From an uncultured delta proteobacterium (GTDB taxonomy: Bacteria; Desulfobacterota; Syntrophorhabdia; Syntrophorhabdales; WCHB1-27): a DNA stretch of 64,000 nucleotides. The notes below the pieces were generated by a model, which was not told the DNA's origin, did no database searches, and saw nothing but the letters and a program-made list of their open reading frames with translations. The position numbers were made by a program, and so were the translations under genes. Each line of letters starts with the position of its first letter. The stretch's first letter is position 1. Positions 17,400 to 62,267 of the stretch are shown here, one piece after another. The DNA lies in NCBI GenBank assembly GCA_963821605.1, contig CAWGEZ010000033.1:9645-73644 (forward strand), written 5' to 3'.

Positions 17400-17408
17400 A
17401 AAGAGGCG

Positions 17409-19790: not shown

Positions 19791-19861
19791 AAAAAAGATG
19801 GCAGAGGGGAATGCGGCATAGCGGCGCCGCCCGGGGCCTCGCGGCTCCCGGCCTCTGCCAT
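19791..19861 (-). terminator. GC-rich compound hairpin plus T6 run (reverse strand)
   Basis: 10-bp stem atggcagagg (19798-19807) / cctctgccat (19852-19861), inner ccggg/cccgg pairing, and aaaaaa at 19791-19796 (TTTTTT on the reverse strand). It lies about 200 nt downstream of the DUF2254 stop. Confidence 0.5.
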
Positions 19862-20060
19862 AGGGTGGATGGTCAAAAATAATGCCCACTTACATTCTAG
19901 CCCCGACACTAAGTCACTGCTCCACACGCCGTCTATAGTCGGGCGACCTTCCTCACATGTCCAAGCCTGATTAGACTCCTGGCACAGCCCGCAACACTCC
20001 ACCCAGTCCATCACCCCCCTGATTACTCGGCATTCGGTAACGGTCTCCCTACTGCTCGGT

Positions 20061-21353
20061 CTACCGGCGTGACAGCCCAAGGCCTTGCCGGTCTTCCCGC
20101 AGGGCCATCGTCTGATCCAAGGCGTCGAGAATCGAGCGCTCCACCACCAGGTCCAAATGTTGGAGATACCGCTGCACCACCGTCTTGTGCTCGGCCTCTG
20201 TCACCGAATCCGCCAAACTCAGAAGGGCAGAGCGCAGCCGGCGCATCACCTGAACCGACCCGGCGCCATATTGGCGAATCTCATCGAACGCCAGCGTGAG
20301 GTAATCCTCCCAGGTGGGCGTCGGGAAGACGAGACGGCAGACGCCCCGTTCATCCGTAACGCAGCCGGCGTCGAGCGCCCGCCGGCCAAGTCGGACCAGC
20401 AAGTCCTCGATCTGGTCGATAGTTTGAACCGCTGTGGTCGGATCGTTGATGGCCGGGGAGAGCGCCCGGATGGCGATGTCCACCAACAGGCGCAGGGGAT
20501 ATTTGGGATCCTGCTCGAAGCTGCGTTCCCGGGCTAGCCGAATCGCCTTCAGGAGCTGGGTCTCGGCCAGCGGTTGCCTGCCGCCGTGGACGCGCAACAG
20601 CAGGGCACCATCGGCCAGGGTGTCGCCGACGGCGCACTCCATCACGATCACTGCGTCAGCTTCCTCAGCCTGCCGGACCAGAGCGTCGACCTGGAAGCGC
20701 GCGACGGTCGAGGGATCGCCCGAGTAGCGCAGCGTCTGAGTGATCGGGCGCTGGCGAGCCTCCTCGGCCGCTTTTCTCCACGACTCCGGCGCTGCGCCTC
20801 CTGCCGCATCCAGTCGCGGGAACATCGCCCGAATGACCTCGCGTCCTCTCTGACCGATCAAATGCAACACGTTGGTGATCTGAAGATCTTTTAGCCGCTG
20901 CACCAGCCGGGCAAAAGCGATCATGCTAACAATCAGCAAGACCACGACCAGCATGACCGAGAACAGGGGTACCTTGCCGCTTCCGTCGCGATCGATCCAG
21001 CAAAGGGTCGCGATCGAATAAAGAAAGGTGGCGATGAAAAGGCCCATAGCGTGAAATAGCATCGGGTCGCGGCTCAGCCAAATGACCAGGCGAGGAGAAT
21101 AAGCCACGGCGCTGAATTGCACCATGACGAAGGCGATGGCGAACACGATGCCGGTCAGCGCCAACATGCCCGAGGCGATGGCGGACAGGGCTGCCTGGGC
21201 CGAAGCGACCGATATACTGTGAGTGAAGGCTCCGAGGAATTGATGCTCAAGTCGCGGCAAAACTAATGCGCATACGACGGTCACTCCCACATACAGCAGC
21301 GGAATCAGCCAAGGCGGTATCGACAAATTATGGGTCTGCGAGAATTTCGGCAC
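20061..21353 (-). CDS. DUF2254 family membrane protein
   Basis: 430-aa ORF with four N-terminal TM helices and a soluble region carrying ERSFEQDPKYPLRLLVDIAIRALSPAINDPTTA, which I recognise as DUF2254-like. Confidence 0.65.
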   Translation of the reverse strand: MPKFSQTHNLSIPPWLIPLLYVGVTVVCALVLPRLEHQFLGAFTHSISVASAQAALSAIASGMLALTGIVFAIAFVMVQFSAVAYSPRLVIWLSRDPMLFHAMGLFIATFLYSIATLCWIDRDGSGKVPLFSVMLVVVLLIVSMIAFARLVQRLKDLQITNVLHLIGQRGREVIRAMFPRLDAAGGAAPESWRKAAEEARQRPITQTLRYSGDPSTVARFQVDALVRQAEEADAVIVMECAVGDTLADGALLLRVHGGRQPLAETQLLKAIRLARERSFEQDPKYPLRLLVDIAIRALSPAINDPTTAVQTIDQIEDLLVRLGRRALDAGCVTDERGVCRLVFPTPTWEDYLTLAFDEIRQYGAGSVQVMRRLRSALLSLADSVTEAEHKTVVQRYLQHLDLVVERSILDALDQTMALREDRQGLGLSRR

Positions 21354-21541
21354 GGGTAACCCTCCTTACCATCCGGGACAACGACGCTGGTAATAGGTGT
21401 GTAGTTCTGCCACCGGTTATCATTAAACCCACGTATTGATTTTATAGATGACCGGATGCTGTGGCCAGCGAGCCATTGGTTTCTTCCGTTTATCCTATTC
21501 ATTCCCGGTCCGCGACTCGTCCATGAATTTCCTGATTCTCT

Positions 21542-22135
21542 CTACCCAGAACTTAAAGGCCTCCTTGGCTGATCCTCAGACGGGGAAAACCTTTCCGTGA
21601 ATCCGGCCGTCTGCTCGTTTTTGGCGACGGCGATGACCTCACGGTCATAGGCGACGAGCGACCCTCGGGCGACTCTGCGCTGGTTGCCCCGGACACTGGT
21701 CTCGACGAACCCCGTAGCGTTCCTGTCTTCAGGGCCGGGGTTGCGCGGAATGTCGGCAGGATATTCACAGAACTGATTTCCGAATGCCGATGCCGCCCTC
21801 ACCCACGACCTCCAATGCGGCTTGGATTGTGCCACGATCGGTCAATGGTCGAACGACGGGTACGTTGGATTCGTAAGGAATGTAGAACCAGAACATTTTT
21901 TCCGGTCAGTTGCCACTTGAGGCCGGGACGTGACGCATGGGTTGGGAACGCTGAGAACAGTTCACCGAGGCTGGCATGAACATCGATACCAGAAGACCGC
22001 GAATCGCTACAACCAAGTATCGTCACGTAGGATGCGGTCCATTGGCAGCCGGTCAGGGTCTATGTGGCAAGCCAGGCAAATGCTCTCCTCTCTTCAGGAA
22101 TCGTTGATGCGCATCTTGAGGCGCTGAACGTTCTA
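21542..22135 (-). pseudogene. probable beta-class carbonic anhydrase, heavily frame-shifted
   Basis: Reverse-strand fragments in different frames: ..DAHQRFLKRG.., ..AANGPHP.., YVTILGCSDSR(12 aa)GELF.., ..LVAYDREVIAV... The CxDSR..G[DE]LF spacing matches beta-CA. The rest is too broken to confirm. Confidence 0.35.
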
Positions 22136-22408
22136 TCAAAGACTTTCGCGATTTGTCTAATCAATGGTGACGATCTTGCACGATGTCAGAAAAGGCACCA
22201 TTAGCCTAACCATTTCCCTCTGAAGCGTGTGTATTGAATGCAGTAGTTTCAAAAATCACGATTACAGTAACAAACGAAATTCAGCATCACGGATTCTGGA
22301 AAATCTTTACAGGACAAAAATGGTCGCTTTCACCTGCTATGTAGATTGTTCAACCCCCTGAAGTGGCTGCTGCTGCAGCGCACTTGTTAGGCAAGGACTT
22401 CAAAATCA

Positions 22409-22789
22409 TCACATGAATCCCTTGATATATCTTAGGACGTCATCTGGCACCGGGAAAGCGATACCCTCTTGCGCTGCCTGCTTAACTATATCGTGCCAGC
22501 TTCCACCGAAGGTCTTCGCAACTCGCTCTGTCACCTTCGCACTATTCGCAATCTCAGCCAAGCGGGAAATACCGACGTCCTCGACTAAACGAACGATGGC
22601 GTCGTGCAGCGTGGCGAGCGTCGCAGGGTCATTGGTAGTCCACTTGATAAACGTACCCAGACGCTTCAGGTCAGTCGCACTGTGCGGTGTGACGCTCGTG
22701 TGTGGCATGGGAACAAAAACCATCCATTGAGTCGTGAGGATGTGAACTTGTCCTTCGCTCGTGTCGAGTGTTTTGAAATACCTGCTCAT
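22409..22789 (-). CDS. hypothetical protein (orphan)
   Basis: ORF 22409-22876, with a probable start at MSRYFKTLDTSEGQ. I recognise no family. It lies in a lower-GC patch. Confidence 0.35.
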   Translation of the reverse strand: MSRYFKTLDTSEGQVHILTTQWMVFVPMPHTSVTPHSATDLKRLGTFIKWTTNDPATLATLHDAIVRLVEDVGISRLAEIANSAKVTERVAKTFGGSWHDIVKQAAQEGIAFPVPDDVLRYIKGFM

Positions 22790-22835
22790 GGCGAGACAAT
22801 CGATGGTGCCCATCGAAAAAACAACAAATATAGCA

Positions 22836-23250
22836 TCATGGCTCCGACCGCAACGCAGAGCCCAAAGAAAAGCCACATGAAGGACTGACTTGTCTTTTCT
22901 GTTCCCGTTTGTTTCTTTGCGATATGATGTAAATTGAAGCTATTGCTAGTACGAGCGGGATTGGAAACATTCCGAGTATGAAAAAAAGGATCTTATCGCT
23001 TGTTTCAAGAGGCGCAGCATTTCGAGTGGTAAGTGCTTCAGCAGTTTCTTCTTGAGTTTGTGCGGTTTCCTCTTCGGGCCCTTGCAAGGATTTCTTCATA
23101 GGCCGTTTGAGAAGTTATCCCCCCCGACAGCAGTTCCCTCTTCGCTAGCTCGATAGCCTCCGTTTCATAATCAGCTTCGTCGACGAAGGCAGTCCAGCAC
23201 CCTCCGCATGGTCCCCGCCGTTCCGCGTCCGACGATTCCTCCGTTAACAT
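22836..23250 (-). CDS. hypothetical small membrane protein, apparently frame-shifted
   Basis: ORF 23038-23250 (MLTEESSDAERRGPCGGCW..) continues in ORF 22836-23099 (..ILFFILGMFPIPLVLAIASIYII TM helix). A second TM-like FMWLFFGLCVAVGAMMLYLLFF is in a third frame. A G7 homopolymer lies at about 23125. Confidence 0.3.
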
Positions 23251-23337
23251 TAATCAGTTGACCTTTCCCTTGTCAAAGGTTCTTACGTTGTTCGGTGAAT
23301 CAAAGTTCTTTACTTCGATACCTTTCATACCTCTCCC

Positions 23338-24435
<1,098 letters not shown>

Positions 24436-24483
24436 TCAGTCCACATTACCTAATATAATTCGGATTCTCTTGTGGACAAGGAG

Positions 24484-25801
24484 TCATGGCTGAAGCCGTG
24501 ATTCCTGTGGCTGTCTATCGGTACCTTCTCGTTCTGTCTTGCAGTGATCAACGATAAGCTGCGAACCCCGCCGTGTCGTCGCATAGGTCCACGCCCATTG
24601 GAGGAACACACTTACCTTCAGGTACGACTCGGCGAGAGACAGGAAATGCACGGCCACCCATACGACCCACGCCAGGAAGCCGGCAAGTCGAATCCTGCCG
24701 CTCTCCAGGACGGCGAAGCCCTTGCCGACCACCGCCATATTACCTTTGTCAAAGTAGTGAAAGGGAGCCGGTGTTGACAGACCCGGTGATACGAGCGTGA
24801 AGCAGCTTTCCCGCGTAGTGTCCCTGCTGAATCGCCACCTGCGCCACGCCGGGCAGCGGTTTGCCGTCGCGATCGAGTGACGCGGTATCGCCTACTACAA
24901 AGATCTCAGGATGGCCGGGCACTGACAGGTCTTTTTGTACTCTCACCCGGCCGGCGCGGTCCGTCTCCGCGTTCAACCACTTGCCAGCAGGTGAGGCCGT
25001 CACCCCTGCCGTCCAGATCACTGCCCTGCTTGAAATACGTTCCCCTGCTATGATGACGCCCTCTTCATCGATCAGGTCCACCCCCTTTCCCAACCGCACC
25101 TCCACGCCCAGTTCCTCGAGCCTTTGCTTTGCGGCCATGGAGAGCTTTTCCGAAAACGTGCCCAACACGCGACTGGCCATATCCACCAGAATAATGCGCG
25201 CCGACGTGGAACGAATCCTCCGAAATTCGGATTGCAGGGTGGTCCGGACGAGCCACGCAAGTGCGCTCGCCATTTCCACGCCGGTGGGACCCGCGCCGAC
25301 CAGTACAAAGGTCAGCAGGTCCCGGTGGCGGTCCGGATCTTCTTCGGCTTCCGCCCGCTCGAATGCTCCCATGATCTTGTTCCGGATCGCCACGGCATCC
25401 GCGAGGGTTGTCAGTCCCGGAGCGTACCTCTCGAATTCGTTGTGCCCGAAGTAGCTGTGACCCGCCCCTGTGGCAAGAATCAAATAATCGTACGCGATCG
25501 GCACGCCCTCGCGGTCCGCGTTGCTGGCGAAGACGCACTTTCGATCTTGGTCCACTCCTGTGACGTCACCCATGATCACTGTAGTGTTCTTCTGATTCCG
25601 AAGAATCCCGCGAATCGGCGAGGCAATCTGCCCTGGCGTGAGGACCCCGGTGGCTACCTGATAGAGCAACGCCTGAAACAGGTGGTGGTTTGCGTGGTCG
25701 ATCAAGATAATCTGAGCAGGCGTCTTCCTGAGAGCCTTAGCGGCGGCCAGGCCGCCAAAGCCTCCGCCAACGATTACGACACGGGGTGTTCGATCAGTCA
25801 T
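24484..25801 (-). CDS. ndh: type II NADH dehydrogenase (NDH-2) (1 frame change near 24745)
   Basis: Start MTDRTPRVVIVGGGFGGLAAA at 25801, with a second dinucleotide fold FVLVGAGPTGVE. The C-terminal membrane-anchor part MAVVGKGFAVLESGRIRLAGFLAWVVW is in ORF 24484-24738. Confidence 0.85.
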
Positions 25802-25961
25802 ACCCTGATCCGAATGGGTACATTTTCCATCGAGGTGTCTCCACCTTGCGGTTCGGATAGGAACCGAGGCTCGTGGGACATGAGAATTGGAAATAGCAGT
25901 GCACGAGAGCGAAACGATTTCAGCCGGTTTGTTGGTCTCCTCTTCTTGTCCATGTATCAAT

Positions 25962-26189
25962 ATAAGACACATGAGCAGAAGCGGCAACTGCTATGACAAC
26001 GCTTACCTAGAGTCCTTCTTCGGCACGCTCAAGACAGAGCTGGTCCATGGCGAGCGGTACCGTACGAGGCTGGAGGCGCGGCTCAGTATTTTCGAATACG
26101 TAGAAGTGTTCTATAATCGTCAGAGGCGGCATTCGGCATTAGGGTACAGGAGCCCAGAACAGTATGAAAGGCTCCTCAATGAAACTTAA
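25962..26189 (+). mobile_element. IS3-family transposase (OrfB/rve) C-terminal remnant
   Basis: ..[67 protein letters not shown] is the conserved IS3 integrase-core tail. No N-terminal part or OrfA lies upstream, where the ndh promoter region begins. Confidence 0.8.
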
Positions 26190-26405
26190 CTATGTGTCCA
26201 CTTTTTCGGGGAAAGGTCAGAGTGAAATTCTTGCGAAAAAGGCAGAGCCATTTCAAGCTCAGCCTTTTATGGTCGTCTCCATCTGCAAAGAATCATTTGG
26301 AAGGTAAGGTACAGGCGGTTGATCCCACGACTATGCGTGAAGAAAAGACGCTTGCTTTGAGAGGAACAGGCGTCGTCTCCCTGTGAGACATAAACGCGAC
26401 GCACC

Positions 26406-26936
26406 TCACTTTGGCGGGAATTTCGAAAGAATTCCTTGTACGGCCTTGCTTAGGTCACCCGACGCCCCATCTGTGCTGATGGTACCAAATGCTGTGCCCC
26501 GCCATACCAACTCTCTTTTCTCAACATTGTTTTCCTTCTGCATGGACATTTTGGGCGTGTCGGAAGGAGAAGGCATATCACGTTTGATTTGGTAGATGTT
26601 CAAGGTCAGCATCCGAAGCTGATAGTTGTCCTGGTAAAAGCCGCTCTCGAATTCGTAGTTCATCGATACCATCAGACCAGACTTCTCGGACATCCTGGTC
26701 AAACCTTTCTGCGCCAGAATTTGATCCGCAAGAACCTGAACATTTGCTTCAAGCAGGGGGTCTTTCACATACATGCCCAGTGACGGTGCCCACGTATAAC
26801 TCTTTGGTTCCGAGAAGCTAGTCTTCATGTCATAGGAATATTTGATAGTTGTGCAGCCCCCCAGAATCAGAACCGACAGAAAGACTGTCACTGCCAGTAC
26901 TAAGCTTTTGTTTCCTTTACATACGGTCATCATCAT
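26406..26936 (-). CDS. DUF4136-like lipoprotein
   Basis: 176-aa ORF with the signal and lipobox VFLSVLILGGC, and a DUF4136-like pattern (..SYTWAP.., ..ELVWRGTAFG..). Confidence 0.6.
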   Translation of the reverse strand: MMMTVCKGNKSLVLAVTVFLSVLILGGCTTIKYSYDMKTSFSEPKSYTWAPSLGMYVKDPLLEANVQVLADQILAQKGLTRMSEKSGLMVSMNYEFESGFYQDNYQLRMLTLNIYQIKRDMPSPSDTPKMSMQKENNVEKRELVWRGTAFGTISTDGASGDLSKAVQGILSKFPPK

Positions 26937-27283
26937 GCCCCCTTGCTGAAGATGATATGACGATAAGATATCTTGTCACTTACGGGTATTGTATAGCAGC
27001 TTCTACACGACGTCAAGGTTGTCCGTCAGCAGGGCTCTGACCAATATTGCGGTGTAAAATCATGCGTATTTTCTGGATTGATCCGTGTGTGGATTTCAGG
27101 AAGCACTAAATGAGACGACGTGATCTATCGAAGTCACCTACGAAGAAACTGGCGAAGAAAGTTTTTTGAGTAAAAAATTACCACTGAAATCCGCGCAAGG
27201 GCAGAGCCGCTTCTGACTCTACCCTTGCCAGACGTGCCACCGCAAACTGCGGAGTCACTCCTGTGTGTCGAAAAGCTTCTTCT

Positions 27284-27898
27284 CTAGGGTCTTTCCACCT
27301 TAATCGCGAAAGCCTCAGTCACACGTAACACCACTTCGTCACCCACCTTCACTTCGTTCAATCTCTTCACACGCTTATCCACCGGGTACGTATTGACGTT
27401 GCCCTCAGGCCCTTTAAGGGTAACCGTCCGCTTCTTGTAATCAATGCCTTCCACCGTGGCCGTTATCTCGGTCGTCTTTGTCAGTGTGGCATGAGGCATG
27501 TCTCCCTTCGGCGCTACTTTGACCGTCTGTACCTCTGCAGCAGCAGGTTTCTCAGTCGCCTTTCTCACCCAGATGGCTACCGACTGAGCGTAGGTAGTCT
27601 TTACCAGGTCCCCTACCTTCATCTGGTCGAAGTTCCTTACCTCCGGCCCGCAGGTGATGGTCTGCATTGTGCCATCAGGGTATTTGAGGGTCACTTTGCG
27701 CGTCGCAGCGTCAATCGCGTCTATGGTGGCTGTTACTGTGGCCGTCCCTGCCACAACCGCTCCCGGCCTACCTGCGGCCTCCTTCGGCGCTGCCTTCGTC
27801 TCCTTGCTTACTGTAGCCGCGTGCTCCTGCGCTGCCGCAACCTGCGCAAAGGCGACCATGAGCATCACTGCCAGAACCACTGATAGTACTCTTTTCAT
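27284..27898 (-). CDS. secreted hypothetical protein with two tandem homologous ~60-aa domains
   Basis: Signal MKRVLSVVLAVMLMVAFAQVAAA. Domain 1 is TVTATIDAIDAATRKVTLKYPDGT..KVGDLVKTTYAQSVAIWVRK and domain 2 is EITATVEGIDYKKRTVTLKGPEGN..KVGDEVVLRVTEAFAIKVER. Confidence 0.5.
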   Translation of the reverse strand: MKRVLSVVLAVMLMVAFAQVAAAQEHAATVSKETKAAPKEAAGRPGAVVAGTATVTATIDAIDAATRKVTLKYPDGTMQTITCGPEVRNFDQMKVGDLVKTTYAQSVAIWVRKATEKPAAAEVQTVKVAPKGDMPHATLTKTTEITATVEGIDYKKRTVTLKGPEGNVNTYPVDKRVKRLNEVKVGDEVVLRVTEAFAIKVERP

Positions 27899-28216
27899 AT
27901 GCTACCCCCTCCTGATTTGGATTCAATGGCCTTTATGGATGTTACACCTGTTCCATGCGAAACCTATGTATCAGGCCATTCATTGTCAAGCGAGAAGCGG
28001 GGACCTTTCAAGATTTCTTTTCAAGGACAGCTAGAGACCCGAGCCGATTAGACCCTGCACCGAGAGTAATGCAACATTGCCAGTTCTACTCATGCATGAA
28101 TTGCAACTATCGCGATATACATGTTTCAGGAAGAAGTTAGGAGATGACCTTGCACAGTCCGATAGGTCAAATCCCAACTCTTACAGATAAGAATAAAGAT
28201 AGAGCCTATTTGTTTT

Positions 28217-28248
28217 CCTTAACCTTAACCTGTATTATCTCTTACCTG
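28217..28248. repeat. 'ccttaacc..ttacctgtatta' family repeat after dctP-1
   Basis: ccttaaccttaacctgtattatctcttacctg; compare 39211-39256. Confidence 0.5.
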
Positions 28249-32754: not shown

Positions 32755-32928
32755 GGAAGAGGAAGACCGCTTCCTTACAGGATGCTTCGCTATCGCTAGG
32801 AAGCCCGTTCGCTCTGGCGTGCCTAGGAGCGTCGAAATCTCCACCACTCCATGGATTAATTTCCACGTCAGCGCCCTAGCCGCGATCGTCCTAGCCGAAG
32901 GCGATCTTCACTCTTCCAGCGCGGTCTT
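32755..32928. repeat. CCTTACAGGATGCT element family, copy E (mosaic)
   Basis: ccttacaggatgct at 32773-32786 is followed by tcgctatcgctaggaag. Short inverted flanks agaccgc (32764-32770) / gcggtct (32921-32927). The right end abuts the aldolase stop (32929-32931). Confidence 0.65.
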
Positions 32929-37084: not shown

Positions 37085-37294
37085 TAACACCAGTTCGCCT
37101 GCAAAAATAGAGCGAGGCGACCAGGAGGACAGCGATAGCGCAGCATCCTGTAGGACGGAGGCGTACTATGTACGCCGGAGTCGTGCCGATAGCGCTAGCG
37201 AAGCATCCTGTAAGGAAGCATCCTGTAAGGACACAGCGACGAAGGGGCACCCGTGTCTAAACACGGGTCTATGAATGAAGGCGAACTGGTGTTA
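37085..37294. repeat. CCTTACAGGATGCT element family, full copy A
   Basis: 15-bp perfect outer inverted repeat taacaccagttcgcc (37085-37099) / ggcgaactggtgtta (37280-37294). The core contains three AGCATCCTGTA(A)GG motifs, a cgtac-tat-gtacg hairpin and an acccgtgt/acacgggt hairpin. The right arm contains the NYN gene stop (37292-37294). Confidence 0.8.
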
Positions 37295-38330
37295 GGTCTC
37301 CACCCTTTTGACCGCGTGCTTGAGACCTTCGACTTTCGATTCTACCAATCCCCGAGATTCAGCAGCCTGTATGAACTCTTTGAACTGCGCAAATCCCAGG
37401 GCGCTGAACTGCACTTTTCTTTCGATCAGCCTTGAGTTTACCGTGCGATAGGAATGGTAGCTGGGTGTACTTCCCTTGTCCAGGTCCTTGAGGACGTCCA
37501 GAAGAGCTAGCAAAGGCTTTCTGTTGCGGACCTTCCCGTCTCAGCGCGTCCGGCGCAGGATAGACGAGCGCTTCGGCCCCTTTGCCTTCGATGGTGACAA
37601 AACCGGCTTTCACGGCAGCCGTGACAAAGTCACTCCAGTGGGAGAAATTGAGCTTCTTCTCATTGAAGTTCGGGTTTAACATCTTCATTCTGATCTTGAC
37701 CGAGCCGAGGCCGGGGCTAACCTTCTTCTTCAGCATGAGGTCTGCGGCTTCTGCAAGCAGCTGGAACCAGTCTTCCTTGGTCGTCGGGGTTACGATGCTC
37801 CGTTGCTGAGCGGCCTTGTCTTCCGCCGCAGGGACCGTTTTCTGAGGCGATTCTTCATCGTCACCTCCCGGGACAAGTCCCCGGTAGTCTACATAGCTGT
37901 CAGCCAGCGCGAGGAGATCTTCAGAGGCGTTCTGGGTATTGCAGACGATGTGCACCATCTTGCCTGCACGCCGCAGGGCGAGCACGAGAAAACGAAAATC
38001 GCTATCACCTGTTACGAGGATGAAGGTATCTATATGTTCGTGGATACGCATGACCTCCATGGCGTCGGAGACCAACACCATGTCGGAGCTGTTCTTGCGT
38101 CCTTTGGGCACGTGCACAAGATAAAAATATCTCCTGGTCAGGGATGGCGCGAGTTTCGAGAAACCCGGATTGGCCCAGTTGCCGTAAGCGCGAGCAGCCA
38201 CTATCCTGCCTTTAGCCTCAGCGTACTCAATCAAGCCCTCCAGGAAGAGGGAGTCAGACCCCGGGTTCACATTCTCAAGATCCCACAGAATGGCAACATT
38301 GCTCATATCGTTCATGGCCCTCTCAGCCAA
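37292..38330 (-). CDS. NYN (LabA/PIN-like) nuclease-domain protein with C-terminal OST-HTH/LOTUS-like domains (1 frame change near 37500)
   Basis: N-terminus VAILWDLENV..ARAYGNW..FILVTGDSDFRFLVLALRRAGKMV (NYN). The tail in ORF 37292-37513 reads FSALGFAQFKEFIQAAESRGLVE. Confidence 0.75.
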
Positions 38331-41197: not shown

Positions 41198-41361
41198 AGC
41201 ACCCCCCTTGGTGCAGCTCTCCGTAAATAGTATCTATCTTTCTCTTTTTGTTTGCAAGGTCCTCCGAAATGCAAATCCGAAGCCGAGTGAAATCCTAGAC
41301 GATATCGAATGGCTAAAATCCAGGAGAGGCCAAACCCTGCCTGCTCTTTAATCCCTTTGAC

Positions 41362-41398
41362 ATTTGGATTTGTTTAGGATTTCGGATTTAGATATTGG
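41362..41398. repeat. AT-rich 'gatttgtttaggattt' repeat
   Basis: atttggatttgtttaggatttcggatttagatattgg, with a related copy at 57552-57607. It overlaps the DUF763 stop (41388-41390). Confidence 0.55.
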
Positions 41399-42470
41399 AA
41401 GTTGGCGTATGATAGCGGTTGAGTCGCTTAAATGCTTCTATCTTGTCGCGGTCGTTTATCCGTGCCTTGTCGAGGCAGGTTTGGAGGAAGGCAATCGATT
41501 CTTCGTACGTCTTTCGCTGCACCGGGAAGGGGTGGCCGTCCTTGCCTCCGTGGGCGAAGCTGAAACGGGCCGGATCCTTGAAACTCGGCGGGGCATTGTA
41601 AACGAGTTCCGATACCAGACTTAGAGCCGCTATCGTCCTTGGCCCGACACCATGGACCTGGACAAGGTCTTTGAAAGTCTCAGGATGCGCTTCATGCAAG
41701 GTCTTGAACACGCGGTCAAGCCTCCTGGCATCTACGTCCTGCGCGGTTATGTAGTGTCGTTCCGGCATTGCGAGGGCTATCTCTTTCCAGGTTTTCGACA
41801 TCCAATCAGGGTCCTGCCTTGTAAAGTCCACCGTTGCAGCGTGCACCGGAGCGCTTTCCCTGGCCACAAGGTTAAGCGTATCCTTTTGCTGGTCGCAGGT
41901 CACGCCGGTATGCGGTTCGCAGGTTAGATCAAGGTTCTCCCGTGAGAACCACTGGTAACGTCGCGCCGTGCGGGTTTCCTCACTCATGCCTTGCTGGATG
42001 ATCGCCCAGTCCCCGTCTTTCGAGAGAATGAAGGTGTGGTGGTAGATGTTGTAGCCATCCTGTACCAGGCTGTTGTCGATCTTTGCGCAAAGTCGGCTGA
42101 GAGCTATGAAGGAAGTGACGTCCATGTCCCACGCTCTGCCGTAGTCGGCCAGTTCCTCAGGTGTCCGGCGAGACGTCGCTGCCTTTCCACCGCAAATAGC
42201 CAATGGAAAATCGGAAGCGGTGTAAGCAAGCCCATCCTTGAGCGCACCGCAAAGCGTGGTAGTCAGTCCACTCGAGTGCCAATCGAAGCCGACTACGCAG
42301 CCAAATGCCTGGAACCAGACAGGATCGGATAATCTCCTCAAGACCTCCCTGGGACCGAATTCGAGGAGGATCATAGATAGGACCGCGCCAGAGAGCCGCT
42401 TCATCTTATCGAAGAGCCACCGCGGCGCCTTTCCGTAATGGAGCGGGAGCGTAGTAACGGCCCTTTTCAT
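41388..42470 (-). CDS. DUF763 domain-containing protein
   Basis: 360-aa ORF. The N-terminus LPLHYGKAPRWLFDKMKRL..RLSDPVWFQAFGCVVGFDWHSSGLTTT is as I recall for DUF763. Confidence 0.7.
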   Translation of the reverse strand: MKRAVTTLPLHYGKAPRWLFDKMKRLSGAVLSMILLEFGPREVLRRLSDPVWFQAFGCVVGFDWHSSGLTTTLCGALKDGLAYTASDFPLAICGGKAATSRRTPEELADYGRAWDMDVTSFIALSRLCAKIDNSLVQDGYNIYHHTFILSKDGDWAIIQQGMSEETRTARRYQWFSRENLDLTCEPHTGVTCDQQKDTLNLVARESAPVHAATVDFTRQDPDWMSKTWKEIALAMPERHYITAQDVDARRLDRVFKTLHEAHPETFKDLVQVHGVGPRTIAALSLVSELVYNAPPSFKDPARFSFAHGGKDGHPFPVQRKTYEESIAFLQTCLDKARINDRDKIEAFKRLNRYHTPTSNI

Positions 42471-42724: not shown

Positions 42725-42832
42725 GAATCACCTCCGGTTTGTTTTCGAAATTGTAACACGGCGAGCAGCAAATTTGAATATCTTCTCAGTGCGAGAAGGA
42801 GCAAGACTTATCTCACGCCCGCTCGTTCCACT

Positions 42833-43017
42833 CCTTACAGGATGCTCCGCTATCGCTAGAGGCCGCAGAGGGCGCAGAGGAAAGGCGAGGTGAGAAGTAC
42901 GTGAGGACCAGCATGTGCTTACGCGGAATGCTCGAGAGACATTCCGGGCATCGCGTCCGTGCTGCGCCGGAATGGGTTAGCGTAGCAAGATCCGCGATAG
43001 CGCAGCATCCTGTAAGG
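42833..43017. repeat. CCTTACAGGATGCT element family, copy D: two 24-nt arms in inverted orientation
   Basis: ccttacaggatgctccgctatcgc (42833-42856) versus gcgatagcgcagcatcctgtaagg (42994-43017) match at 23/24 as reverse complements, separated by a 137-nt spacer. Confidence 0.8.
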
Positions 43018-43184
43018 AAGCGGAGCATGAAGAGCGATGAGTTGCCTGATGCGAGAATTCTGCATCAGGCACGAAGAAATGCTCACATTCTGCGAGTCAT
43101 CTCCTCAAGTCGCTCTCTGCGGCCTCGAAGGAGCATAGCGACTGGGCGTGAGATAATGTACTGTGCTTGGCGACGACTGCCGAC

Positions 43185-45279: not shown

Positions 45280-45718
45280 TCAATCCAGGGCGTCTACTAA
45301 ATCCCTCTCCATCAACATTCTTCGCTTCCAGCCGTGGAGGCGAGGAAGCATGTGAGGCAAGAGTCTCAGGCCGTAGTAAGGTCTGACGATGGGCAGGCCC
45401 AGCATGTCACCAAACATGACAACGGTTAAAAGATCGCCCAGACCGGCTCTTGTCTTTGCCGCAAAAACGACATGATCGTGCACCGCAAAGCCGAAGAGGA
45501 ACTCCTTTATCGCGTTGAGGAGCCCGCCGCTAGTCATATAAATCCCCGGTTGGCAAGTAAAAAGCTCCAGGTGCGCGATCAAGGCCATCTGACGAGGATC
45601 ATGAGCAGGAAGCCCCAGATGCAAGGCGCGCGAGCCTTGGTCGACCGGAGGCGTACTTGACTGTACGTCGGAGGACGCGGGCGCAGCCGCAACGCCGCAG
45701 ATGGACTTGATTGCTCAT
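45280..45718 (-). CDS. small conserved hypothetical protein S1 (paralogue of S2); 5' end uncertain
   Basis: Core GGLLNAIKEFLFGFAVHD..MFGDMLGLPIVRPYYGLRLLPHMLPRLHGWKRRMLMERDLVDALD. Candidate starts are MTSGG at 45537, or AGGAGG-ATG at 45718, which needs one frame change. Confidence 0.45.
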
Positions 45719-47923: not shown

Positions 47924-49789
47924 ATGGATACGTTTGATGTAATCGTTGTAGGGGCAGGGTCATGCCGGCTGTGAAGCTGCGCTCGCCGCGGCCAGGCTTC
48001 GGGCCAGTACGCTCCTTCTCACCATGAACCTCGATCATGTTGCCTACATGTCATGCAATCCGGCCGTGGGAGGTCTGGGCAAAGGCCATCTCGTCAAAGA
48101 GATCGATGCGCTGGACGGGGAGATGGCCCGGAACATCGACGCCACCGGTATCCAGTTCAGAACGCTCAATATGACAAAGGGTCCGGCGGTCAGGGCGAGC
48201 AGAGCCCAGGCTGACAAGATCAGATACAGCCAGAGAATGAAGAAGGTGCTGGAGGGGACGGACGGCCTGCTTCTGCGTCAAGCCACGGTAGAGAAGATTC
48301 TCGTGGAAGAGGGCAGGGCGGTTGGTGTTGAGACGGGGTGGGGAGAAAGGTTTTACGGGAAAACAGTCGTGCTCACGACGGGCACCTTTCTGCGGGGCCT
48401 TATTCATGTCGGGCTCGAGCAGTTCGAGGCCGGAAGGATGGGCGATTTCGCGTCAGTGGGGCTCTCCGAGTGCCTGCGGAAGCTGGGCTTCGAACTGGGA
48501 AGGTTGAAGACGGGCACGTGCCCGCGGCTGAACGGCCGTACCATCGATTTCTCAAGAATGCAGGCCCAGGCCAGCGATGACCCACCCAAGCCCTTTTCAT
48601 TCTTGACAACCAGACTCACTCAGCAGCTGGTCCCCTGTTTCATGACCTACACAAACGAGACTACCCATGAGATCATACGGTCCGGGCTCGGCCGGTCCCC
48701 TCTGTACAGCGGCAAGATCAAGGGCACCGGTGTCAGGTATTGCCCATCGATAGAAGATAAGGTCGTGCGATTTGCGGAAAGGAAGCCGTCACCAGATCTT
48801 TCTTGAGCCCGAAGGGCTCGATACCGTGGAGTATTATCCTAATGGGCTTTCGACCAGCCTGCCGCTCGATGTGCAGCTTGCGATGCTCAGGAGCATCGAG
48901 GGCCTGGAGCGGGTGGAGATCACACGGCCGGGCTACGCTATCGAGTATGATTTTGTCTATCCGACGCAGCTTTTTCCCACGCTCGAAACGAAACAGGTGG
49001 GCTATCTCTTTTGCGCCGGGCAGATAAACGGAACGACCGGGTATGAGGAGGCGGCGGCCCAGGGCCTCATGGCCGGCATCAATGCGGCCTTGAAGGCGCA
49101 GCGGCAACGGCGAGTTCGTGCTGCGTCGCGACGAGGCGTACATCGGAGTAATGATCGACGATCTCGTCACCAAGGGCGTGGATGAGCCTTACCGTATGTT
49201 CACGTCCCGGGCAGAGTACAGGCTCCTGCTGCGAGAGGATAATGCTGACCTGAGGCTCACGGAGAAGGGTTACAGGATAGGCCTCGTATCGAGGGAACGG
49301 TACGAACACGTGGTTGAAAAGCGGGCAGCAATGGAGCGTCTCAGCCAAACGCTCAGGGAAAGGAGACTCTTTCCCACGGCGGCTACCAATGAACAGCTCA
49401 AAGAGCTGGGATTGGAAGGGATAAAGAACCCCACGACCCTGGAAGAACTGCTCAAGAGACCCGGCATTACCGTGGCTACATTACGTCGACTGGTTGAGGG
49501 GCTGGACGGTATACAGGATGTTGTTGCTTATCAGGTGGAGTTGGATGTAAAATACCGGGGCTACACCGACAGACAGATGGAGATGATCTCCAGAGTGAGC
49601 AAGCTGGAGGAGAGAAAGATACCGCCTGACATTTCGTATGGAGAGATTGCGGGTCTTTCCAGAGAGGTCATAGAGAAACTGTCAAAGATCAAACCCGTCT
49701 CCTTCGGCCAGGCGTCAAGGATTTCCGGGGTTACCCCTGCCGCGGTGAGTGCCCTTCTGATTCATTTCAAGAAGAGAGGGCTCCTCTGA
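47924..49789 (+). pseudogene. mnmG: tRNA uridine-5-carboxymethylaminomethyl modification enzyme MnmG (GidA), at least 3 frame changes
   Basis: MDTFDVIVVGAG at 47924, then ..LLLTMNLDHVAYMSCNPAVGGLGKGHLVKEIDALDG (ORF 48024-48806), ..[22 protein letters not shown] (48772-) and ..[31 protein letters not shown] (49118-49789). Confidence 0.85.
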
Positions 49790-49937: not shown

Positions 49938-50626
49938 ATGCGCATGCAGGGGAACGTGATAGAGACATCGACTGACGTCATGAGGCTGCTTGCCCATCAC
50001 GATGTTGATGCAGCCGGTGCTGCTGACTTATCGCGCTACGGAAAAGAGCTCCTGGGGTTTGATGAGCCTATCCTTGACCAGTACACGTGTGCGATCTGTT
50101 TCGGACTTGTTATCTCAAAGAATGTGCTTGAGACGATCAGCAATGGACCAACGCTCTTTTATCAGCATCATTACAGGCAGATCAATTACCGGCTCGATAT
50201 GATCGCCTATTTGCTTGCAAGGGAGATCGAAGCGGAAAGGTTTTAAGGCCTTGCCGTTTGCCGCATCCCAGATGGTTGACTGGCAGAACCAGAAGGCGCA
50301 TATTTCGCACAAGAGGATGGGAGAGATCGCAGGCATCGGATGGATAGGAAGGAATAATCTTCTCGTTCATCCCGGTGTTCGGCGCTCAGGTTCGCTACAA
50401 CACGGTCCTGACCGATATGCCGCTTGAGACAGGAGAGCCCCTGGAGACGGGCTGTGGGTCGTGTACTGCGTGCATGCAGGCCTGTCCGGCTGAAGCCATC
50501 AAGGCTGAGAGGGAGCTTTTCGATCACAAGGGATGTTTTGCCATGCTCAAGCGCTTCAAGAATGAGCGCGGTCTCGGCCATCACATCTGCGGCATCTGCG
50601 TGAAGGCCTGTAGGGGGAAACGATGA
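49938..50626 (+). pseudogene. QueG-like (epoxyqueuosine reductase-related) 4Fe-4S protein, at least 2 frame changes
   Basis: ..AHISHKRMGEIAGIGWIGRNNLLVHP.. (ORF 50215-), ..VRYNTVLTDMPLE..CGSCTACMQACPAEAI..CGICVKAC (ORF 50375-50626). The N-terminus is in ORF 49863-50246. Confidence 0.6.
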
Positions 50627-50629: not shown

Positions 50630-50772
50630 ATATCAAGCTGCCTTCATTCATATAGCTTCGTTGCCTGCGTCCTTACAGGATGCTGCGTCGGCACGACTCC
50701 GACGTACTAATAGTACGCCTCCGTCGCTATCCTCCTGGTCGCCTCGCTCTATTTTTGAATGCAGCTTGATAT
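50630..50772. repeat. CCTTACAGGATGCT element family, full copy B (opposite orientation to A and C)
   Basis: 12-bp perfect outer inverted repeat atatcaagctgc (50630-50641) / gcagcttgatat (50761-50772). The core contains ccttacaggatgct and the cgtacta-a-tagtacg hairpin. It starts 4 nt after the QueG-like stop. Confidence 0.8.
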
Positions 50773-50806: not shown

Positions 50807-51902
50807 ATGAAAGCGATGATTGCTTTGGAAGACGGGACCTTCTTCGAGGGTCAGAGCTTGGGCGCCGACGGCGAGAAAGAGGGCGAGATGCGTCTTCAAC
50901 ACGAGCATGACGGGCTATCAGGAGATCATGACCGATCCTTCGTACAAAGGACAGATCGTTACCATGACCTACCCGCTGATCGGTAATTACGGCGTTAACG
51001 AAGAGGATGTGGAGTCGAAGGGGCCGAAGGTCGAAGGCTTCATCGTCAGGGAGTTCAGCAAGATCACCAGCAACTGGCGGGCGAAAGAGAGCCTGATCGA
51101 CTATCTGAGACGGTATAACATCGTCGGTATCGAAGAGGTCGACACCAGGGCGTTGACCAAACACATACGCGAAAAAGGGGCCATGAAGGCCATCATCTCC
51201 ACGCGTGACCTCGACCCGAAGTCCCTGGTGCAGAAAGCAAAGGAGTCGGCAGGGATCGTCGGCATCGACCTGGTAAAAGAGGTGACGTGCGATGCGCCGT
51301 ACGAATTTGAGGCGCATGGTGATTTCACCTGTGTCGTTATGGACTTCGGCGTCAAGATCAATATTCTCAGGATGCTCCGGAAGACAGGCTGTCGCGTGGT
51401 TGTGGTGCCGGCCCGGACCAAGGCAAAAGAGATCCTGGCCATGAAGCCGGATGGGGTGCTTCTTTCCAACGGCCCTGGTGATCCGCAGGGCGTGCCCGAT
51501 GTTGTTGAAGAGATACGCAAGCTCTTCGGCAAGGCGCCGATCTTCGGCATCTGTCTCGGACAGCAACTGCTCGGCCTCGCATACGGCGGCGACACGTACA
51601 AGCTGAAGTTCGGCCACAGGGGCGCGAATCAGCCCATCAAAGAGTTGGCCACAGGGAAGGTTGCGATCGCATCGGAGAATCACGGTTTTGCCGTGAACCT
51701 TGATTCCATAAAGAAGGAGAAGGTTAAAGGCACGCACCTCAATCTCAATGACGACACGCTTGAAGGTATAGAGCATGAGATCTACCCCATTTTCTCCGTG
51801 CAGTTCCACCCGGAAGCGTCGCCGGGCCCGCATGACTCCTGGGGTCTGTTCGCGAAATTCAGGGAGATGATGGACGCATTCAAGAAGGAGCGCCATGCCT
51901 AA
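50807..51902 (+). CDS. carA: carbamoyl-phosphate synthase small (glutaminase) subunit (1 frame change near 50887)
   Basis: [27 protein letters not shown] at 50807, then [23 protein letters not shown].. in ORF 50820-51902, and the GATase motif [10 protein letters not shown]. Confidence 0.9.
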
Positions 51903-54900
51903 GCGGAAAGACCTGAAAAGCATCTTCCTCATCGGTTCCGGTCCCATCGTGATAGGTCAGGCCTGCGAGTTCGACTACTCGGGAAGCCAGGCCTGCAAGG
52001 CATTGCGGGAAGAGGGCTACCGCGTGATCCTCGTCAACAGCAATCCTGCAACCATCATGACCGACCCGGACATGGCAGACAGGACCTACGTGGAACCCCT
52101 GATTCCGGAAGTGCTCGAAGAGATCATCAAGGTTGAAAGGCCGGATGCGCTCCTGCCGACGCTCGGCGGACAGACCGGGCTCAATCTCGCGACTATCCTC
52201 GCGGAGCGAGGCATTCTCGAGAAGTACAACGTCGAGCTGATCGGCGCGGACTACAAGGCAATCAGGAAGGCTGAGGACAGGGAAGAGTTCAAGGCTGCCA
52301 TGGAACGCATCGGGCTGGAAGTGCCCAAGTCCGGCTTCGCCCGCACCATGGAGGAGGCGCGCAAGGTCGTTAAAGAGATCGGCTTCCCCATCATCATCAG
52401 GCCGAGCTACACGTTGGGCGGCACGGGCGGTTCCGTGGCTTACAACATAGAAGAGTTCGAAGTGCTTGCCCTGCGCGGCCTTGAGAGCAGCATGATCAGC
52501 GAGATCCTGATCGAAGAGTCGGTCATCGGCTGGAAAGAGTATGAGCTTGAGGTGATGCGCGACAAGAAAGATAACGTTGTCATCATCTGTTCCATAGAGA
52601 ACCTCGATCCGATGGGCGTTCATACGGGAGACAGCATCACGGTGGCGCCGGCACAGACCCTCACCGACAAAGAGTATCAGGTGATGAGGGATGCTGCCAT
52701 CAAGATCATCCGTGAGATCGGCGTGGAGACGGGCGGATCCAATATCCAGTTCGCCGTCGATCAGAACAACGGAAAGATGGTCGTGATCGAGATGAACCCG
52801 AGGGTGTCGCGAAGTTCCGCGCTGGCGTCAAAGGCGACCGGATTCCCCATAGCCAAGATCGCGGCCAAGCTTGCCGTTGGCTACACGCTTGATGAGATAC
52901 CGAATGATATAACGAAGAAGACGCCTGCATGTTTTGAACCGACGATAGATTACTGCGTGGTGAAGGTCCCCCGCTTCACCTTTGAGAAGTTCAAGGGCGC
53001 CGACGAGACGCTTACGATCTCGATGAAATCGGTGGGCGAGGCCATGGCCATAGGCAGGACTTTCAAAGAGGCCTTGCAGAAAGGACTTCGTTCCCTGGAA
53101 GTCGGCTGCTATGGGATCACCGACGGCAAGCAGTTCGGCCCGAACGACGTGGAACTGATAAAGCAGAAACTGACCATCCCCAACAAGGACAGGATCTTTT
53201 ACGTGCGCCACGCTTTCCGGAACGGCATACCTCTGGATGAGATCTACGAGCTTTCAAAGATAGACCCATGGTTTCTGAAGAACATAGAAGAGATCGTTGA
53301 ATTCGAACATGAGCTGGAACAGTACAAGAGCGATCTACCCATCTTCTCGCAGGCGAGGGACAGCTTCTCCGAAGAATTGATGAAGCGCGCCAAGCGGTAC
53401 GGATTCTCCGACAGGCAGATAGGCGAGATCATAGGCATGAATGAGCTGGAGGTCAGACAGTGGCGTCTGAAGCGGGGCATCTCCAGCGTATTCAAGCTGG
53501 TCGACACGTGCGCCGCCGAGTTTGAAGCCTATACCCCGTACTACTATTCCACCTACGAGATCGAGGATGAAACCAGGAAGAGCGACAAAGAGAAGGTGAT
53601 GATCCTCGGCGGCGGGCCCAACAGGATAGGGCAGGGGATCGAGTTCGATTACTGCTGCGTGCATGCGGCCTTCGCTCTCAAAGACCTGGGCTACGAGACG
53701 ATCATGGTCAACAGCAACCCGGAAACGGTCAGCACCGACTATGACACGTCTGACAAGCTCTACTTCGAGCCATTGACCCTGGAGAATGTGCTCGACATCG
53801 CGGAGCGGGAAAAGCCGATGGGCGTGATTGTCCAGTTCGGCGGACAAACGCCGTTGAATCTTGCCGTAGCCCTGAAGAAAGCCGGCGTGCCCATCATCGG
53901 CACCGCACCTGAGATGATAGACATCGCAGAGGACAGGGAAAAGTTCAAGGCCATTCTGAAAAAACTGAACCTGACCCAGCCGGAGAATGGGACGGCTACG
54001 TCGGTTGCCGAGGCAAAGGAGGTCGCGAACATCATCGGTTACCCGATAGTCGTGCGGCCATCCTATGTGCTTGGCGGGCGTGCCATGGAGATCGTCTACG
54101 CGGAGAGCGATCTGGAATCCTTCACCGAAAAGGCCCATGAGGCATCGCCTGACCATCCCATCCTGATCGATAAGTTCCTTGAGGATGCGATAGAGATCGA
54201 CGTGGATGCGGTGGCGGACGGAGAGCGGTGTGTGGTGGCCGGCATCATGGAACATATTGAAGAAGCCGGTATCCACTCCGGCGACAGCGCCTGTGCCCTG
54301 CCGCCTTACTCCTTGAACGACGACATCATAGAGAAGATTAATAGGGAGACGTGCAAGCTTGCTGCGTGAGCTTCACGTTGTCGGGTTGATGAATATCCAG
54401 TATGCTGTGAAGAATGATATCGTCTATGTGCTGGAAGTGAATCCCAGGGCGTCGAGGACTGTGCCCTTTGTGAGCAAGGCCACGGGCGTCCAGTGGGCCA
54501 AGGTGGCGGCAAAGCTGATGGTGGGCAAGACGTTGAAGGAACTGGGCATAGAGCGGGAGATAGCGATCGATCACATCGCGGTCAAAGAAGCGGTCTTTCC
54601 CTTTAACCGGTTCTACGGCGTGGACACGATCCTTGGACCGGAGATGAAATCGACAGGCGAAGTCATGGGCATCGATACCAATTTCGGGGCGGCTTTCTGG
54701 AAGGCGCAGCTCGGGGCCAATCAGAACCTGCCCTTTAAAGGCAGCGTTTTTATCAGCGTAAAGAACCAGGACAAGCGCCACGTTGTCTTTATTGCCAAAA
54801 AGCTTTCCGACCTCGGGTTCAAGGTTTTTGCGACGCGCGGCACGTCAAAGATACTTATCAATAGCGGCATCGACACGCAGTTTGTCTATAAGGTTTCTGA

Positions 54901-61034: not shown

Positions 61035-61112
61035 AGGCGAACTCGCATTGCCTTGTGATTGTGAGTGCGACTCGACTCACGCGGAGCAAAGGGGAGATCT
61101 GGCCGCACTCTT

Positions 61113-61259
61113 ATACCGATTTGCATTCAAGATGGAGACCGAGGCGGCAGGTGAGGAGACGACGCAGGCGTACTCGATGTACGTCGAGGAAAGCGATAGC
61201 GCAGCATCCTGTAAGGACGCAGCGACAACGAAGGTATACGCTTGAAGGCAAATCGGTAT
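61113..61259. repeat. CCTTACAGGATGCT element family, full copy C
   Basis: Outer inverted repeat ataccgatttgcattcaag (61113-61131) / cttgaaggcaaatcggtat (61241-61259), 18/19 match. The core has the cgtac-tcgat-gtacg hairpin and gcgatagcgcagcatcctgtaagg. The right arm touches the amidohydrolase stop (61259-61261). Confidence 0.8.
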
Positions 61260-62267
61260 TACTTGAGTTTTAGCAGTCTTCGGGCGTTGCCATCGTAGAT
61301 CGCTTGGCGCTCCGCGGGAGTGATTGCCAGACTCTCTAGCACCTCGATGCCCCACCGGATGAAAGCCGACCCTTTTTCAGGGTCGAATGGTGCATCGGTT
61401 GCGAAGAGCGTTCTCTCGGCTCCAAAAAATTTGAGACCGAGCAGGGTAGCATCCCGGGCTCCGCCCAGGGCCGTATCAGCATAGAACATGCGGAAGTAGT
61501 CTACGGGCCGCTTCTTCAGTTTTTTCAGGAGAAGCGAATAATCCTCGTCCGACGTTCTTGAACCCAATTGGTCCCAGCCGGGGCCTACACGCCCCTCAAA
61601 GTAGGGGATCATAGCGCCCATGTGATGGGTGATGATCTTGATATCAGGGTGGCGGTCAAAGAGGCCGGAAAAGACGAGATGCGCCATGGCCACGCTCGAT
61701 TCGTAAGGCCAGCCCAACACCTGCCAGATCTCATAGCGGCTCTTTGTCTCGCTTTTGTAATCGGCAAAATCGGCCCCACGATTTGGGTGAAGCCAGACGG
61801 GACGGTCCAATTCGGCCATGAGGTCGAAGAGTGGCATGGTCTCCGGCCTGTCAAGGGGCCGGCCCAAAACATTCGTCGGCACCTGTACGCCAACAGCACC
61901 AAGCTCGCGTACTGCCCTCCCGGCCTCCGCAAGGAGCCCTTCGGGATCATTCATGGGAAGGGAAAGCAACGAAACCTGGAAAACGCTCCGGATACTTGCT
62001 CACCAGTTCAGCCATGCCGTCGTTCGCCAGTCTCGCCATCTCCGTTGAGACGGGCGGCGGGCCAAATGCCTCGATGGGCGGGGCTCCAAGACAGATTACC
62101 TGGACATAACCCTCAAAACTATCCATGATCCTGAACCGTTCATTAAGATCCACCACCGCCGGGATTTCCCGCATCCGCTTGAGAATATCTTTGCCCTTTG
62201 GTGAGATGCTGAGCATCTTGTCAAAATAGGCTTTTGGAAATATGTGGTTGAAAACATCGATCTTCAT
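61259..62267 (-). CDS. amidohydrolase-2 family enzyme (ACMSD/LigW-type non-oxidative decarboxylase-like) (1 frame change near 61960)
   Basis: MKIDVFNHIFPKAYFDKM at 62267 (GGAGG ribosome-binding site), in ORF 61947-62411. The body in ORF 61259-61969 has ..PVWLHP.., ..IITHHMGAMIPYFEGR.. and ..FATDAPF. Confidence 0.75.

Follow-up and report, generated by a model that had tools for sequence, protein, structure and literature searches.

A 64,000-nucleotide stretch of DNA from an uncultured delta proteobacterium (the window) carries a dispersed repeat that raises the question of where its ends come from: each full copy is closed by two arms that are reverse complements of each other, and within the window the arms of one copy seem to share nothing with those of the next. 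An earlier note on this DNA had offered two answers, namely that the repeat enters the loop of pre-existing hairpins, or that a long closing stem is maintained by compensatory change, and had argued against a transposon on the ground that transposition makes direct duplications. Here, we report that the repeat is very probably a non-coding MITE (miniature inverted-repeat transposable element) with a partner among the insertion sequences (IS) of the IS630 family, and that the seemingly copy-specific arms are, on alignment of many copies, the tips of the element's own terminal inverted repeat (TIR; the outer 12 of 19 nt) and not host DNA.

Window copies and terminal inverted repeats

The window holds three full copies with a common core, as had been described: A (limits 37085-37294, + strand), B (50630-50772, - strand) and C (61113-61259, + strand), with lengths of 206, 143 and 147 nt, respectively. 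The arms of each copy are exact reverse complements, over 15-16 bp in A and 12 bp in B and in C, and each copy lies at the 3' end of a gene, with a stop codon inside the right arm of A, 3 nt before B and touching C. The individual features are as follows.

37087..37292, + strand: MITE copy A, from ACACC to GGTGT, 206 nt
37087..37098, + strand: left arm of A, ACACCAGTTCGC, TIR positions 1-12
37160..37176, + strand: central hairpin of A, GGCGTAC-tat-GTACGCC
37281..37292, + strand: right arm of A, GCGAACTGGTGT
37292..37294, - strand: TAA stop codon of the NYN/OST-HTH gene, overlapping the last base of the right arm of A
50624..50626, + strand: TGA stop codon of a QueG-like open reading frame (ORF), 3 nt upstream of B
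50630..50772, - strand: MITE copy B, 143 nt
50630-50641, read on the - strand: right arm of B, GCAGCTTGATAT
50703..50720, - strand: central hairpin of B, AGGCGTAC-tatta-GTACG
50761-50772, read on the - strand: left arm of B, ATATCAAGCTGC
61111..61113, + strand: left target-site duplication of C, TTA
61114..61258, + strand: MITE copy C without its flanking repeats, TACC...GGTA, 145 nt, missing at the empty site
61166..61183, + strand: central hairpin of C, AGGCGTAC-tcgat-GTACG
61259..61261, + strand: right target-site duplication of C, TTA, which on the - strand is the TAA stop codon of an amidohydrolase gene

Copy A is flanked by TA on either side (37085-37086 and 37293-37294), giving the palindrome TAACACC...GGTGTTA, and the C-terminal ORF of the NYN/OST-HTH gene occupies 37292..37513. 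Two internal motifs are far more frequent in the window than expected: AGGCGTAC-N-GTACG, the central hairpin of form GGCGTAC-loop-GTACG(Y)C, occurs 5 times (0 expected) and GCATCCTGTAAGGA 9 times (0.5 expected).

When species-representative genomes were scanned, the core motif turned up in about 57 contigs belonging to a metagenome-assembled genome (MAG), 'Syntrophobacterales bacterium Chersky.21_67'. Profile searches yielded 44 full copies, A, B and C included (the genome set), and searching metagenomes with the left TIR gave 97 loci containing 68 MITE-sized pairs; the family comprises more than 100 copies from the related MAG and metagenomes. Every in-register copy carries the 19-nt TIR ATACCAATTTGC-A-TTCAAG ... 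CTTGAA-G-GCAAATTGGTAT (44 genome copies; the consensus also holds in the 68 metagenome copies). The arm of C (ATACCGATTTGC) departs from the consensus ATACCAATTTGC at 1 of 12 positions, and the arms of B (ATATCAAGCTGC) and A (ACACCAGTTCGC) at 3 of 12 each, with each change in A mirrored in its right arm. Since all 44 copies stand in register with the same TIR, the arms are TIR tips, and the claim that they are unrelated between copies does not hold. The apparent inverted duplications of unique flanks are simply these variable tips, for which no new insertion mechanism is needed.

Copies are mostly 90-300 nt long and the family has a G+C content of about 60%. The repeat has no coding capacity, as the earlier note had said: there is no conserved ORF, and the share of copies that are open in a given frame is only 23-63% across all six frames. 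Two metagenome elements (127-130 nt, among L090-L186) carry the same 19-nt ends around an unrelated A+T-rich interior (...TTGTTTTTTTGGGAGGAGTGTTTTATAATGGCGAC...), indicating that these TIRs frame at least two unrelated interiors. The suspicion that the repeat belongs to no Rfam family was correct, as no family matched anywhere in the window at gathering score, and in E-value mode A and B matched only a snoRNA at chance level (E = 0.16). A blastn search of PLSDB plasmids gave no match to copy C. The family is undescribed in Rfam or in the literature searched; the kind of element is ordinary.

Target duplication, empty sites and a probable IS630-family partner

The amidohydrolase gene adjoining C has 94% identical orthologs on three contigs (L079, L080 and L081). 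In gene direction, these read ...aaactcaagTAAgagtgcggc..., with a single TAA and no arm sequence, whereas the window reads ...aaactcaagTAA[TACCGATTTGCC...GCAAATCGGTA]TAAgagtgcggc..., and C plus one copy of the repeat equals a 148-nt gap in all three. This exact empty site, a single TAA without arms, shows that C (145 nt) lies within the stop codon and has duplicated it, and that the site held no earlier hairpin. C is likewise absent from L068-L078 and L082, and more distant orthologs lack the element too and end in TAA or TAG. At the site of A, two contigs (L083 and L084) hold the same insertion with the same arms next to a 98% identical NYN protein. A is absent from L085-L089, where the downstream DNA is unalignable, so that these are suggestive only and not clean empty sites. 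The amidohydrolase ortholog of the MAG (L010) was considered as an empty site for C and rejected, a different hairpin repeat being present.

Direct 3-nt repeats just outside the arms occur in the genome set as TTA-TTA (9 copies), TAA-TAA (7 copies) or mixed pairs (2 copies). Exact 3-nt duplications flank 17 of the 44 copies, where permutation gives 8.6 (p = 0.0002), and 33 of 67 independent metagenome copies, where it gives 17.5 (p < 1e-4). The MITE thus inserts with a direct 3-nt target duplication T-N-A, mostly TTA or TAA, and the argument that transposition makes direct duplications fails as an objection to a transposon. A model of symmetric TA duplication fits only copy A.

The ends of the repeat also lead to a transposase. 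Two contigs (L096 and L145) carry the exact 22-nt left end of the MITE followed by orfA (HTH_23, HTH_33), a frameshift and orfB (DDE_3, E = 5e-17), and the joined orfA-orfB protein scores 177.9 bits against the NCBIfam model NF033545 'IS630 family transposase' (cutoff 100). Full-length IS copies reached via orfA homologs (L187-L193) are 1140-1142 bp long and have the same ends as the MITE, including an A.G mismatch at position 13 and a T.G at position 10; in 6 of 6 full-length copies the flanks are TCA/TCA or TGA/TGA. An IS5/PIF-Harbinger partner, suspected from the TTA/TAA duplication, was dropped, because the IS at these ends is of the IS630 type. Comparison of the core ends with IS terminal repeats, which the earlier note had suggested as a check, therefore yields a match, and its reading of the repeat as something other than a MITE gives way to the direct target duplications and the ends common to an IS630-family element, the two outcomes that the note had itself named as speaking against it. 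The repeat is short and non-coding, has TIRs and direct duplications, is dispersed in many copies that are present in some relatives and absent from others, and shares its TIRs with a transposase-encoding IS, which are the marks of a MITE. As for the IS, its transposase has N-terminal helix-turn-helix (HTH) domains and a DDE_3 catalytic domain as in IS630/Tc1-mariner elements; TA insertion with a 2-bp TA duplication is not seen.

Several points weigh against this identification. Identity between MITE and IS is limited to the terminal ~22 nt and the interiors are unrelated, so that simple deletion within the IS would not yield the MITE. The IS copies come from metagenomic contigs, and no transposase gene of this type was found in the window or in the MAG contigs examined. 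Nor were paired or orphan TIRs 300-4000 nt apart found in the window or at the MAG loci; the IS emerged from the metagenome scan. Exact duplication is kept in only about 40-50% of copies, the flanks of A are inverted (TAA...TTA), and those of B (TGA and TAC) hold no intact 3-nt repeat. Studied IS630/Tc1-mariner elements duplicate TA and not T-N-A (PMC2170065), and the 3-nt repeat is atypical of the IS630 family, to which the element is assigned by protein models. We found no report of IS630 members with T-N-A duplications in the literature searched.

We propose that the IS630-like transposase, or a relative encoded in the host genome, would move the MITE in trans by cut-and-paste, which is the route of IS630/Tc1-mariner elements (ISY100 biochemistry, PMC2170065). 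Such a transposase would tolerate arm positions 3, 6, 7, 8 and 10, where changes fall on both arms together. Insertion on a TAA stop codon would regenerate TAA on both sides and leave the gene intact, and the abutment of copies on stop codons would follow from a TAA target that is both preferred and regenerated. In 11 of the 44 genome copies and in 21 of 61 metagenome copies, a long ORF has its stop codon exactly at the duplication, a placement that is expected if TAA is the preferred target. The genes ending in this way face the right end of the element in 10 of 11 and 18 of 21 cases, respectively (28 of 32 in total). The observation made on three copies, with the CCTTACAGGATGCT strand in the mRNA of the upstream gene, thus extends to 28 of 32 copies on stop codons. 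This bias could reflect an asymmetric extended target or orientation-dependent selection. Over all locations both orientations relative to transcription occur, and in the MAG the copies within tight operon gaps are forward-oriented.

Arm pairing and what maintains it

Covariation was evaluated with both ends aligned in 42 non-redundant sequences of the 44 genome copies. Cells of the terminal stem are paired in 92.8% of cases, 15 of the 18 stem pairs are changed on both sides, and doubly changed cells number 58 compared to 11.0 ± 4.9 in shuffles (0 of 500 reach 58) and at most 10 in slid controls. Stem position 6, for example, is AU in 20 copies, GC in 14 and GU in 7, and stem position 8 is UA in 33, GC in 7 and CG in 1. 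RNAalifold, run on 29 copies of 125-130 nt, recovered an ACC/GGT helix together with the terminal stem and the central hairpin; in the latter, the pair that closes the loop covaries as well (UA 15, CG 5, UG 3). A, B and C each fold into a closed multi-hairpin on either strand (z-scores -4.9 to -6.6). By comparison, the ends of the full-length IS have 2-3 mismatches in the same 12 arm positions, indicating that the complementarity is specific to the MITE: arm pairing is kept only when some 100-200 nt of the same strand separate the ends. The covariation is strong, and the proposal that compensatory change preserves a closing stem is therefore upheld as an observed pattern; its cause could be selection on a structure of RNA or DNA, or templated correction.

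The explanation we prefer, with a little short of even confidence, is selection on the fold-back, in which copies that fold closed as a transcript or as single-stranded DNA would persist and seed new copies. An excess of G.T over A.C pairs (30 vs. 10) was considered as a strand-specific sign of RNA constraint and was rejected, as it becomes 14 vs. 16 without position 10, whose T.G is inherited from the right end of the IS; once this position is removed, there is therefore no strand-specific RNA signal.

We regard it as quite possible, on the other hand, that the arms of the MITE are corrected without any selection, by fold-back in replication with template switching or mismatch repair. The restriction of complementarity to an end spacing of ~100-200 nt (MITE) and not 1.1 kb (IS), the lack of a strand-specific G.U signal after inherited sites are controlled, and the equal folding of both strands all suit such a process. 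Correction would nevertheless be inefficient at best, since many copies at different loci have inherited position 10 (T.G) and position 13 (A.G) unchanged, and copy A in L083/L084 keeps a one-sided arm change. The inheritance of these two mismatches across many loci excludes the stronger version in which the arms are recopied from each other at every jump.

It seems rather unlikely that the stem, the central hairpin and the strongly conserved, purine-rich interior are selected on the folded strand with an orientation-dependent role at gene ends, or else that the transposase prefers intrastrand-paired ends. Under such a selected fold, the pyrimidine-rich mRNA strand at stop-codon copies could protect the 3' end or load Rho.

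We give very little credence to a non-mobile host cis-regulatory RNA (a stabiliser or terminator in the 3' untranslated region) whose stem is under selection and whose copies arise by duplication. Such an RNA would account for the covariation of closing stem and central hairpin, for an interior that is ~90-93% identical between window and MAG when host genes are at ~71% nucleotide identity, and for the orientation bias at stop codons. It is contradicted by the direct target duplications and the presence or absence at orthologous sites, by ends common to a transposase-encoding IS and the lack of an Rfam family, and by copies in both orientations to transcription, even in frame inside a polymerase gene. 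Consensus scans of A, B and C for promoters and terminators gave no match, with no terminator-like site on either strand and no T-run after the arms.

The idea that the element enters the loops of hairpins, for example terminators, already present at each locus, with the arms as host sequence, which the copy-specific look of the arms in the window alone and the position at gene 3' ends had made attractive, is refuted by the empty site of C in L079-L081 (a single TAA without arm sequence), by the one arm consensus in register over 44 copies, by arms that are the ends of a full-length IS, and by the lack of a T-run or terminator-like site. Equally negligible is a REP/REPIN that a RAYT mobilises, or a palindrome-associated element of the IS200/IS605 type that a Y1 (HUH) transposase mobilises as single-stranded DNA: the long fold-back, its compensatory changes and the intergenic location would fit, but the repeat has a 3-nt target duplication and IS630-type ends (TACC...GGTA), and next to its ends lie only IS630-type transposases, plus an inserted IS110-type one, and no Y1 transposase.

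Interior modules, surroundings and related systems

At arm positions 3, 6, 8 and 10 variability is close to that of flanking DNA, as it is in the central loop (5-6 nt; 51 distinct sequences in 85 copies), and the interior blocks are 80-99% identical between copies. Between window and MAG, MITE copies are 90-93% identical and an orthologous gene 71%. The forward strand of the interior consists of 35% G, 25.5% A, 27% C and 12.5% T. From copy to copy, whole modules are either there or missing. Even at a single locus the interior is unstable: copy A in L083/L084 is without the central hairpin and has different modules and four TCCTTACAGGATGCT-like units. The interior is thus built of small hairpin modules with rapid gain, loss and swapping between copies, and we infer frequent exchange or slippage atop constraint on the pieces that are kept.

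Related modules occur on their own. The unit (GATAGCG)n-AGCATCCTGTAAGGA is found singly or in loose arrays between genes (window 7698-7756; L042 2190-2560 and 3805-3830), lies among short low-complexity modules and behaves as an independent small repeat. The earlier count of eight loci of one family in the window stands as far as common internal modules go and fails for the termini, since TACC...GGTA ends occur only in A, B and C; the segments at 2043-2236, 7698-7756, 32755-32928, 42808-43156, 45572-45717 and 55100-55299 have MITE-like internal modules with other ends or none. All of these except 7698-7756 are inverted-repeat elements, with arms such as TTCGCTAGGAAGAT/ATCTTCCTAGCGAA or TTATCTCACGCCC.../...GGGCGTGAGATAA and a 19-bp perfect hairpin at 55100-55151. 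Stretches at 32773-32885, 42774-43184 and 45510-45707 are missing in relatives, and these elements are therefore probably further mobile families that exchange modules with the MITE. Hairpins or arrays of simple GTGTTRAGTGTTAGG-type or TTTGGATTTAGGATTT-type repeats occur at L010 3930-4065 and at window 41356-41404 and 57558-57606; the L010 repeat comes directly after the amidohydrolase ortholog's stop codon, which is where copy C lies in the window.

The MITE is itself a site of insertion. An IS110-family element of 1.2 kb sits at the same internal site of two different MITE copies at two different loci (metagenome contigs, L118 291-1642 and L154 195-1548), with junctions ...GACAACGAAG^CAACTGTGG ... 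GATACAAG^GTATAC.... The two IS110-family copies are 99.4% identical, and the 321-aa product scores 211.9 bits against NF033542 'IS110 family RNA-guided transposase'. The MITE seems to be a specific landing site for this element, as REP is for IS621.

On the MAG contig L065 (MAG JADGQN01), a 1113-aa PHP/DnaE-like polymerase ORF (3452-6790) contains two in-frame MITE copies, at 4296-4420 (42 aa, DTNLHSKIERGG...NANWY) and 5976-6136 (54 aa), which recall the Rickettsia palindromic elements. The idea that the elements are kept stop-free in order to sit in genes was rejected, as no frame is generally open.

The genes flanking window copies (carA, queG-like, NYN and amidohydrolase) are dispersed housekeeping genes syntenic with those of relatives. 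NYN homologs are 94-96% identical in MAGs named Syntrophorhabdales by NCBI, and about 20 kb of the window is syntenic with these MAGs. The 13 kb at window 15063-28218 are absent from the otherwise syntenic contigs of three relatives (L085, L087 and L088), in which the gene of an IclR-type regulator directly abuts that of DctP. Several conserved window genes are split into two or more overlapping ORFs in different frames (for example NYN, 37292-38330; mnmG, 48024-49789; carB, 51895-55132; a TPP enzyme, 58885-60440; amidohydrolase, 61259-62411) where relatives have single ORFs, which suggests indel errors of long-read assembly rather than pseudogenes.

Taken together, these results describe a previously undescribed and abundant MITE/IS pair in uncultured syntrophic Desulfobacterota, in which an IS630-family element stands out by T-N-A rather than TA duplications. 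A TAA stop codon would offer a safe place to land that regenerates itself, and its use shows a strong orientation bias. Covariation in a DDE-type MITE that is absent from the parent IS offers a natural test between selected and self-correcting hairpins. In such genomes, MITE copies also account for many intergenic segments annotated as 'structured' and for some in-frame insertions in genes.

Among known systems, integron attC sites have R''/R' core sites (RYYYAAC / GTTRRRY) in a gene-cassette array beside an integrase, whereas the present ends are ATACC.../...GGTAT and the flanking genes are dispersed housekeeping genes. REP/REPIN and IS200/IS605 systems make no target duplication and have no TIRs common to DDE insertion sequences, and long fold-backs with compensatory changes have been reported for REPINs. 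The present MITE resembles REP/REPIN-RAYT systems in a fold-back kept by paired changes and in offering landing sites to IS110-family elements, and differs from REPINs, which have a conserved tetranucleotide tag, lack target duplication and are tied to a Y1 (RAYT) transposase, in its DDE-type TIRs and target duplication. Paired TIRs of Correia elements (Neisseria) and ERIC (enterobacteria) form hairpins in read-through transcripts, with documented RNase III and RNase E effects. Like these elements, the MITE lies next to genes and has a T/A-centred duplication; Correia and ERIC differ in their TA duplication and promoter effects, the MITE being without promoter- or terminator-like sites. TA flanks and promoters are described for such elements, and the landing of IS621 in REP is described as well (PMC3184786).

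In the Bacillus cereus group, the bcr1 repeat measures ~155 bp, has direct repeats of 5 bp and is transcribed, and compensatory changes keep the structure of its double-stranded RNA (PMC3184786). It is likewise a dispersed mobile repeat whose fold is kept by base-pair compensatory changes; its sequence is unrelated, its direct repeats differ in length, and PMC3184786 cites no transposase partner for it. Chunjie, of Geobacter uraniireducens, also inhabits a deltaproteobacterial genome, inserts in operons and folds stably, and differs in being A+T-rich with 21-bp TIRs and 9-bp direct repeats (PMC3184786), compared to ~60% G+C, 19-nt TIRs and 3-nt repeats here. With Stowaway-type elements of the IS630-Tc1-mariner group the MITE has in common an IS630-family partner, a short A/T-centred target and a likeness to that partner confined to the TIRs; studied members of the group use TA with a 2-bp duplication (PMC2170065), whereas here the IS has TCA/TGA in 6 of 6 copies and the MITE TTA/TAA. 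The Nezha MITE of Anabaena and Nostoc is similarly small and non-coding, forms a stable hairpin, has direct repeats and shares its TIRs with an autonomous IS that occurs in other genomes; TIR and direct repeat are common to ISNpu3, and empty and filled sites are found in related species (PMC3184786). The present MITE differs from Nezha in belonging to another sequence family, in its Syntrophorhabdales/Syntrophobacterales-like Desulfobacterota hosts, and in its T-N-A duplication, its frequent placement on TAA stop codons and the marked covariation of its TIR tips.

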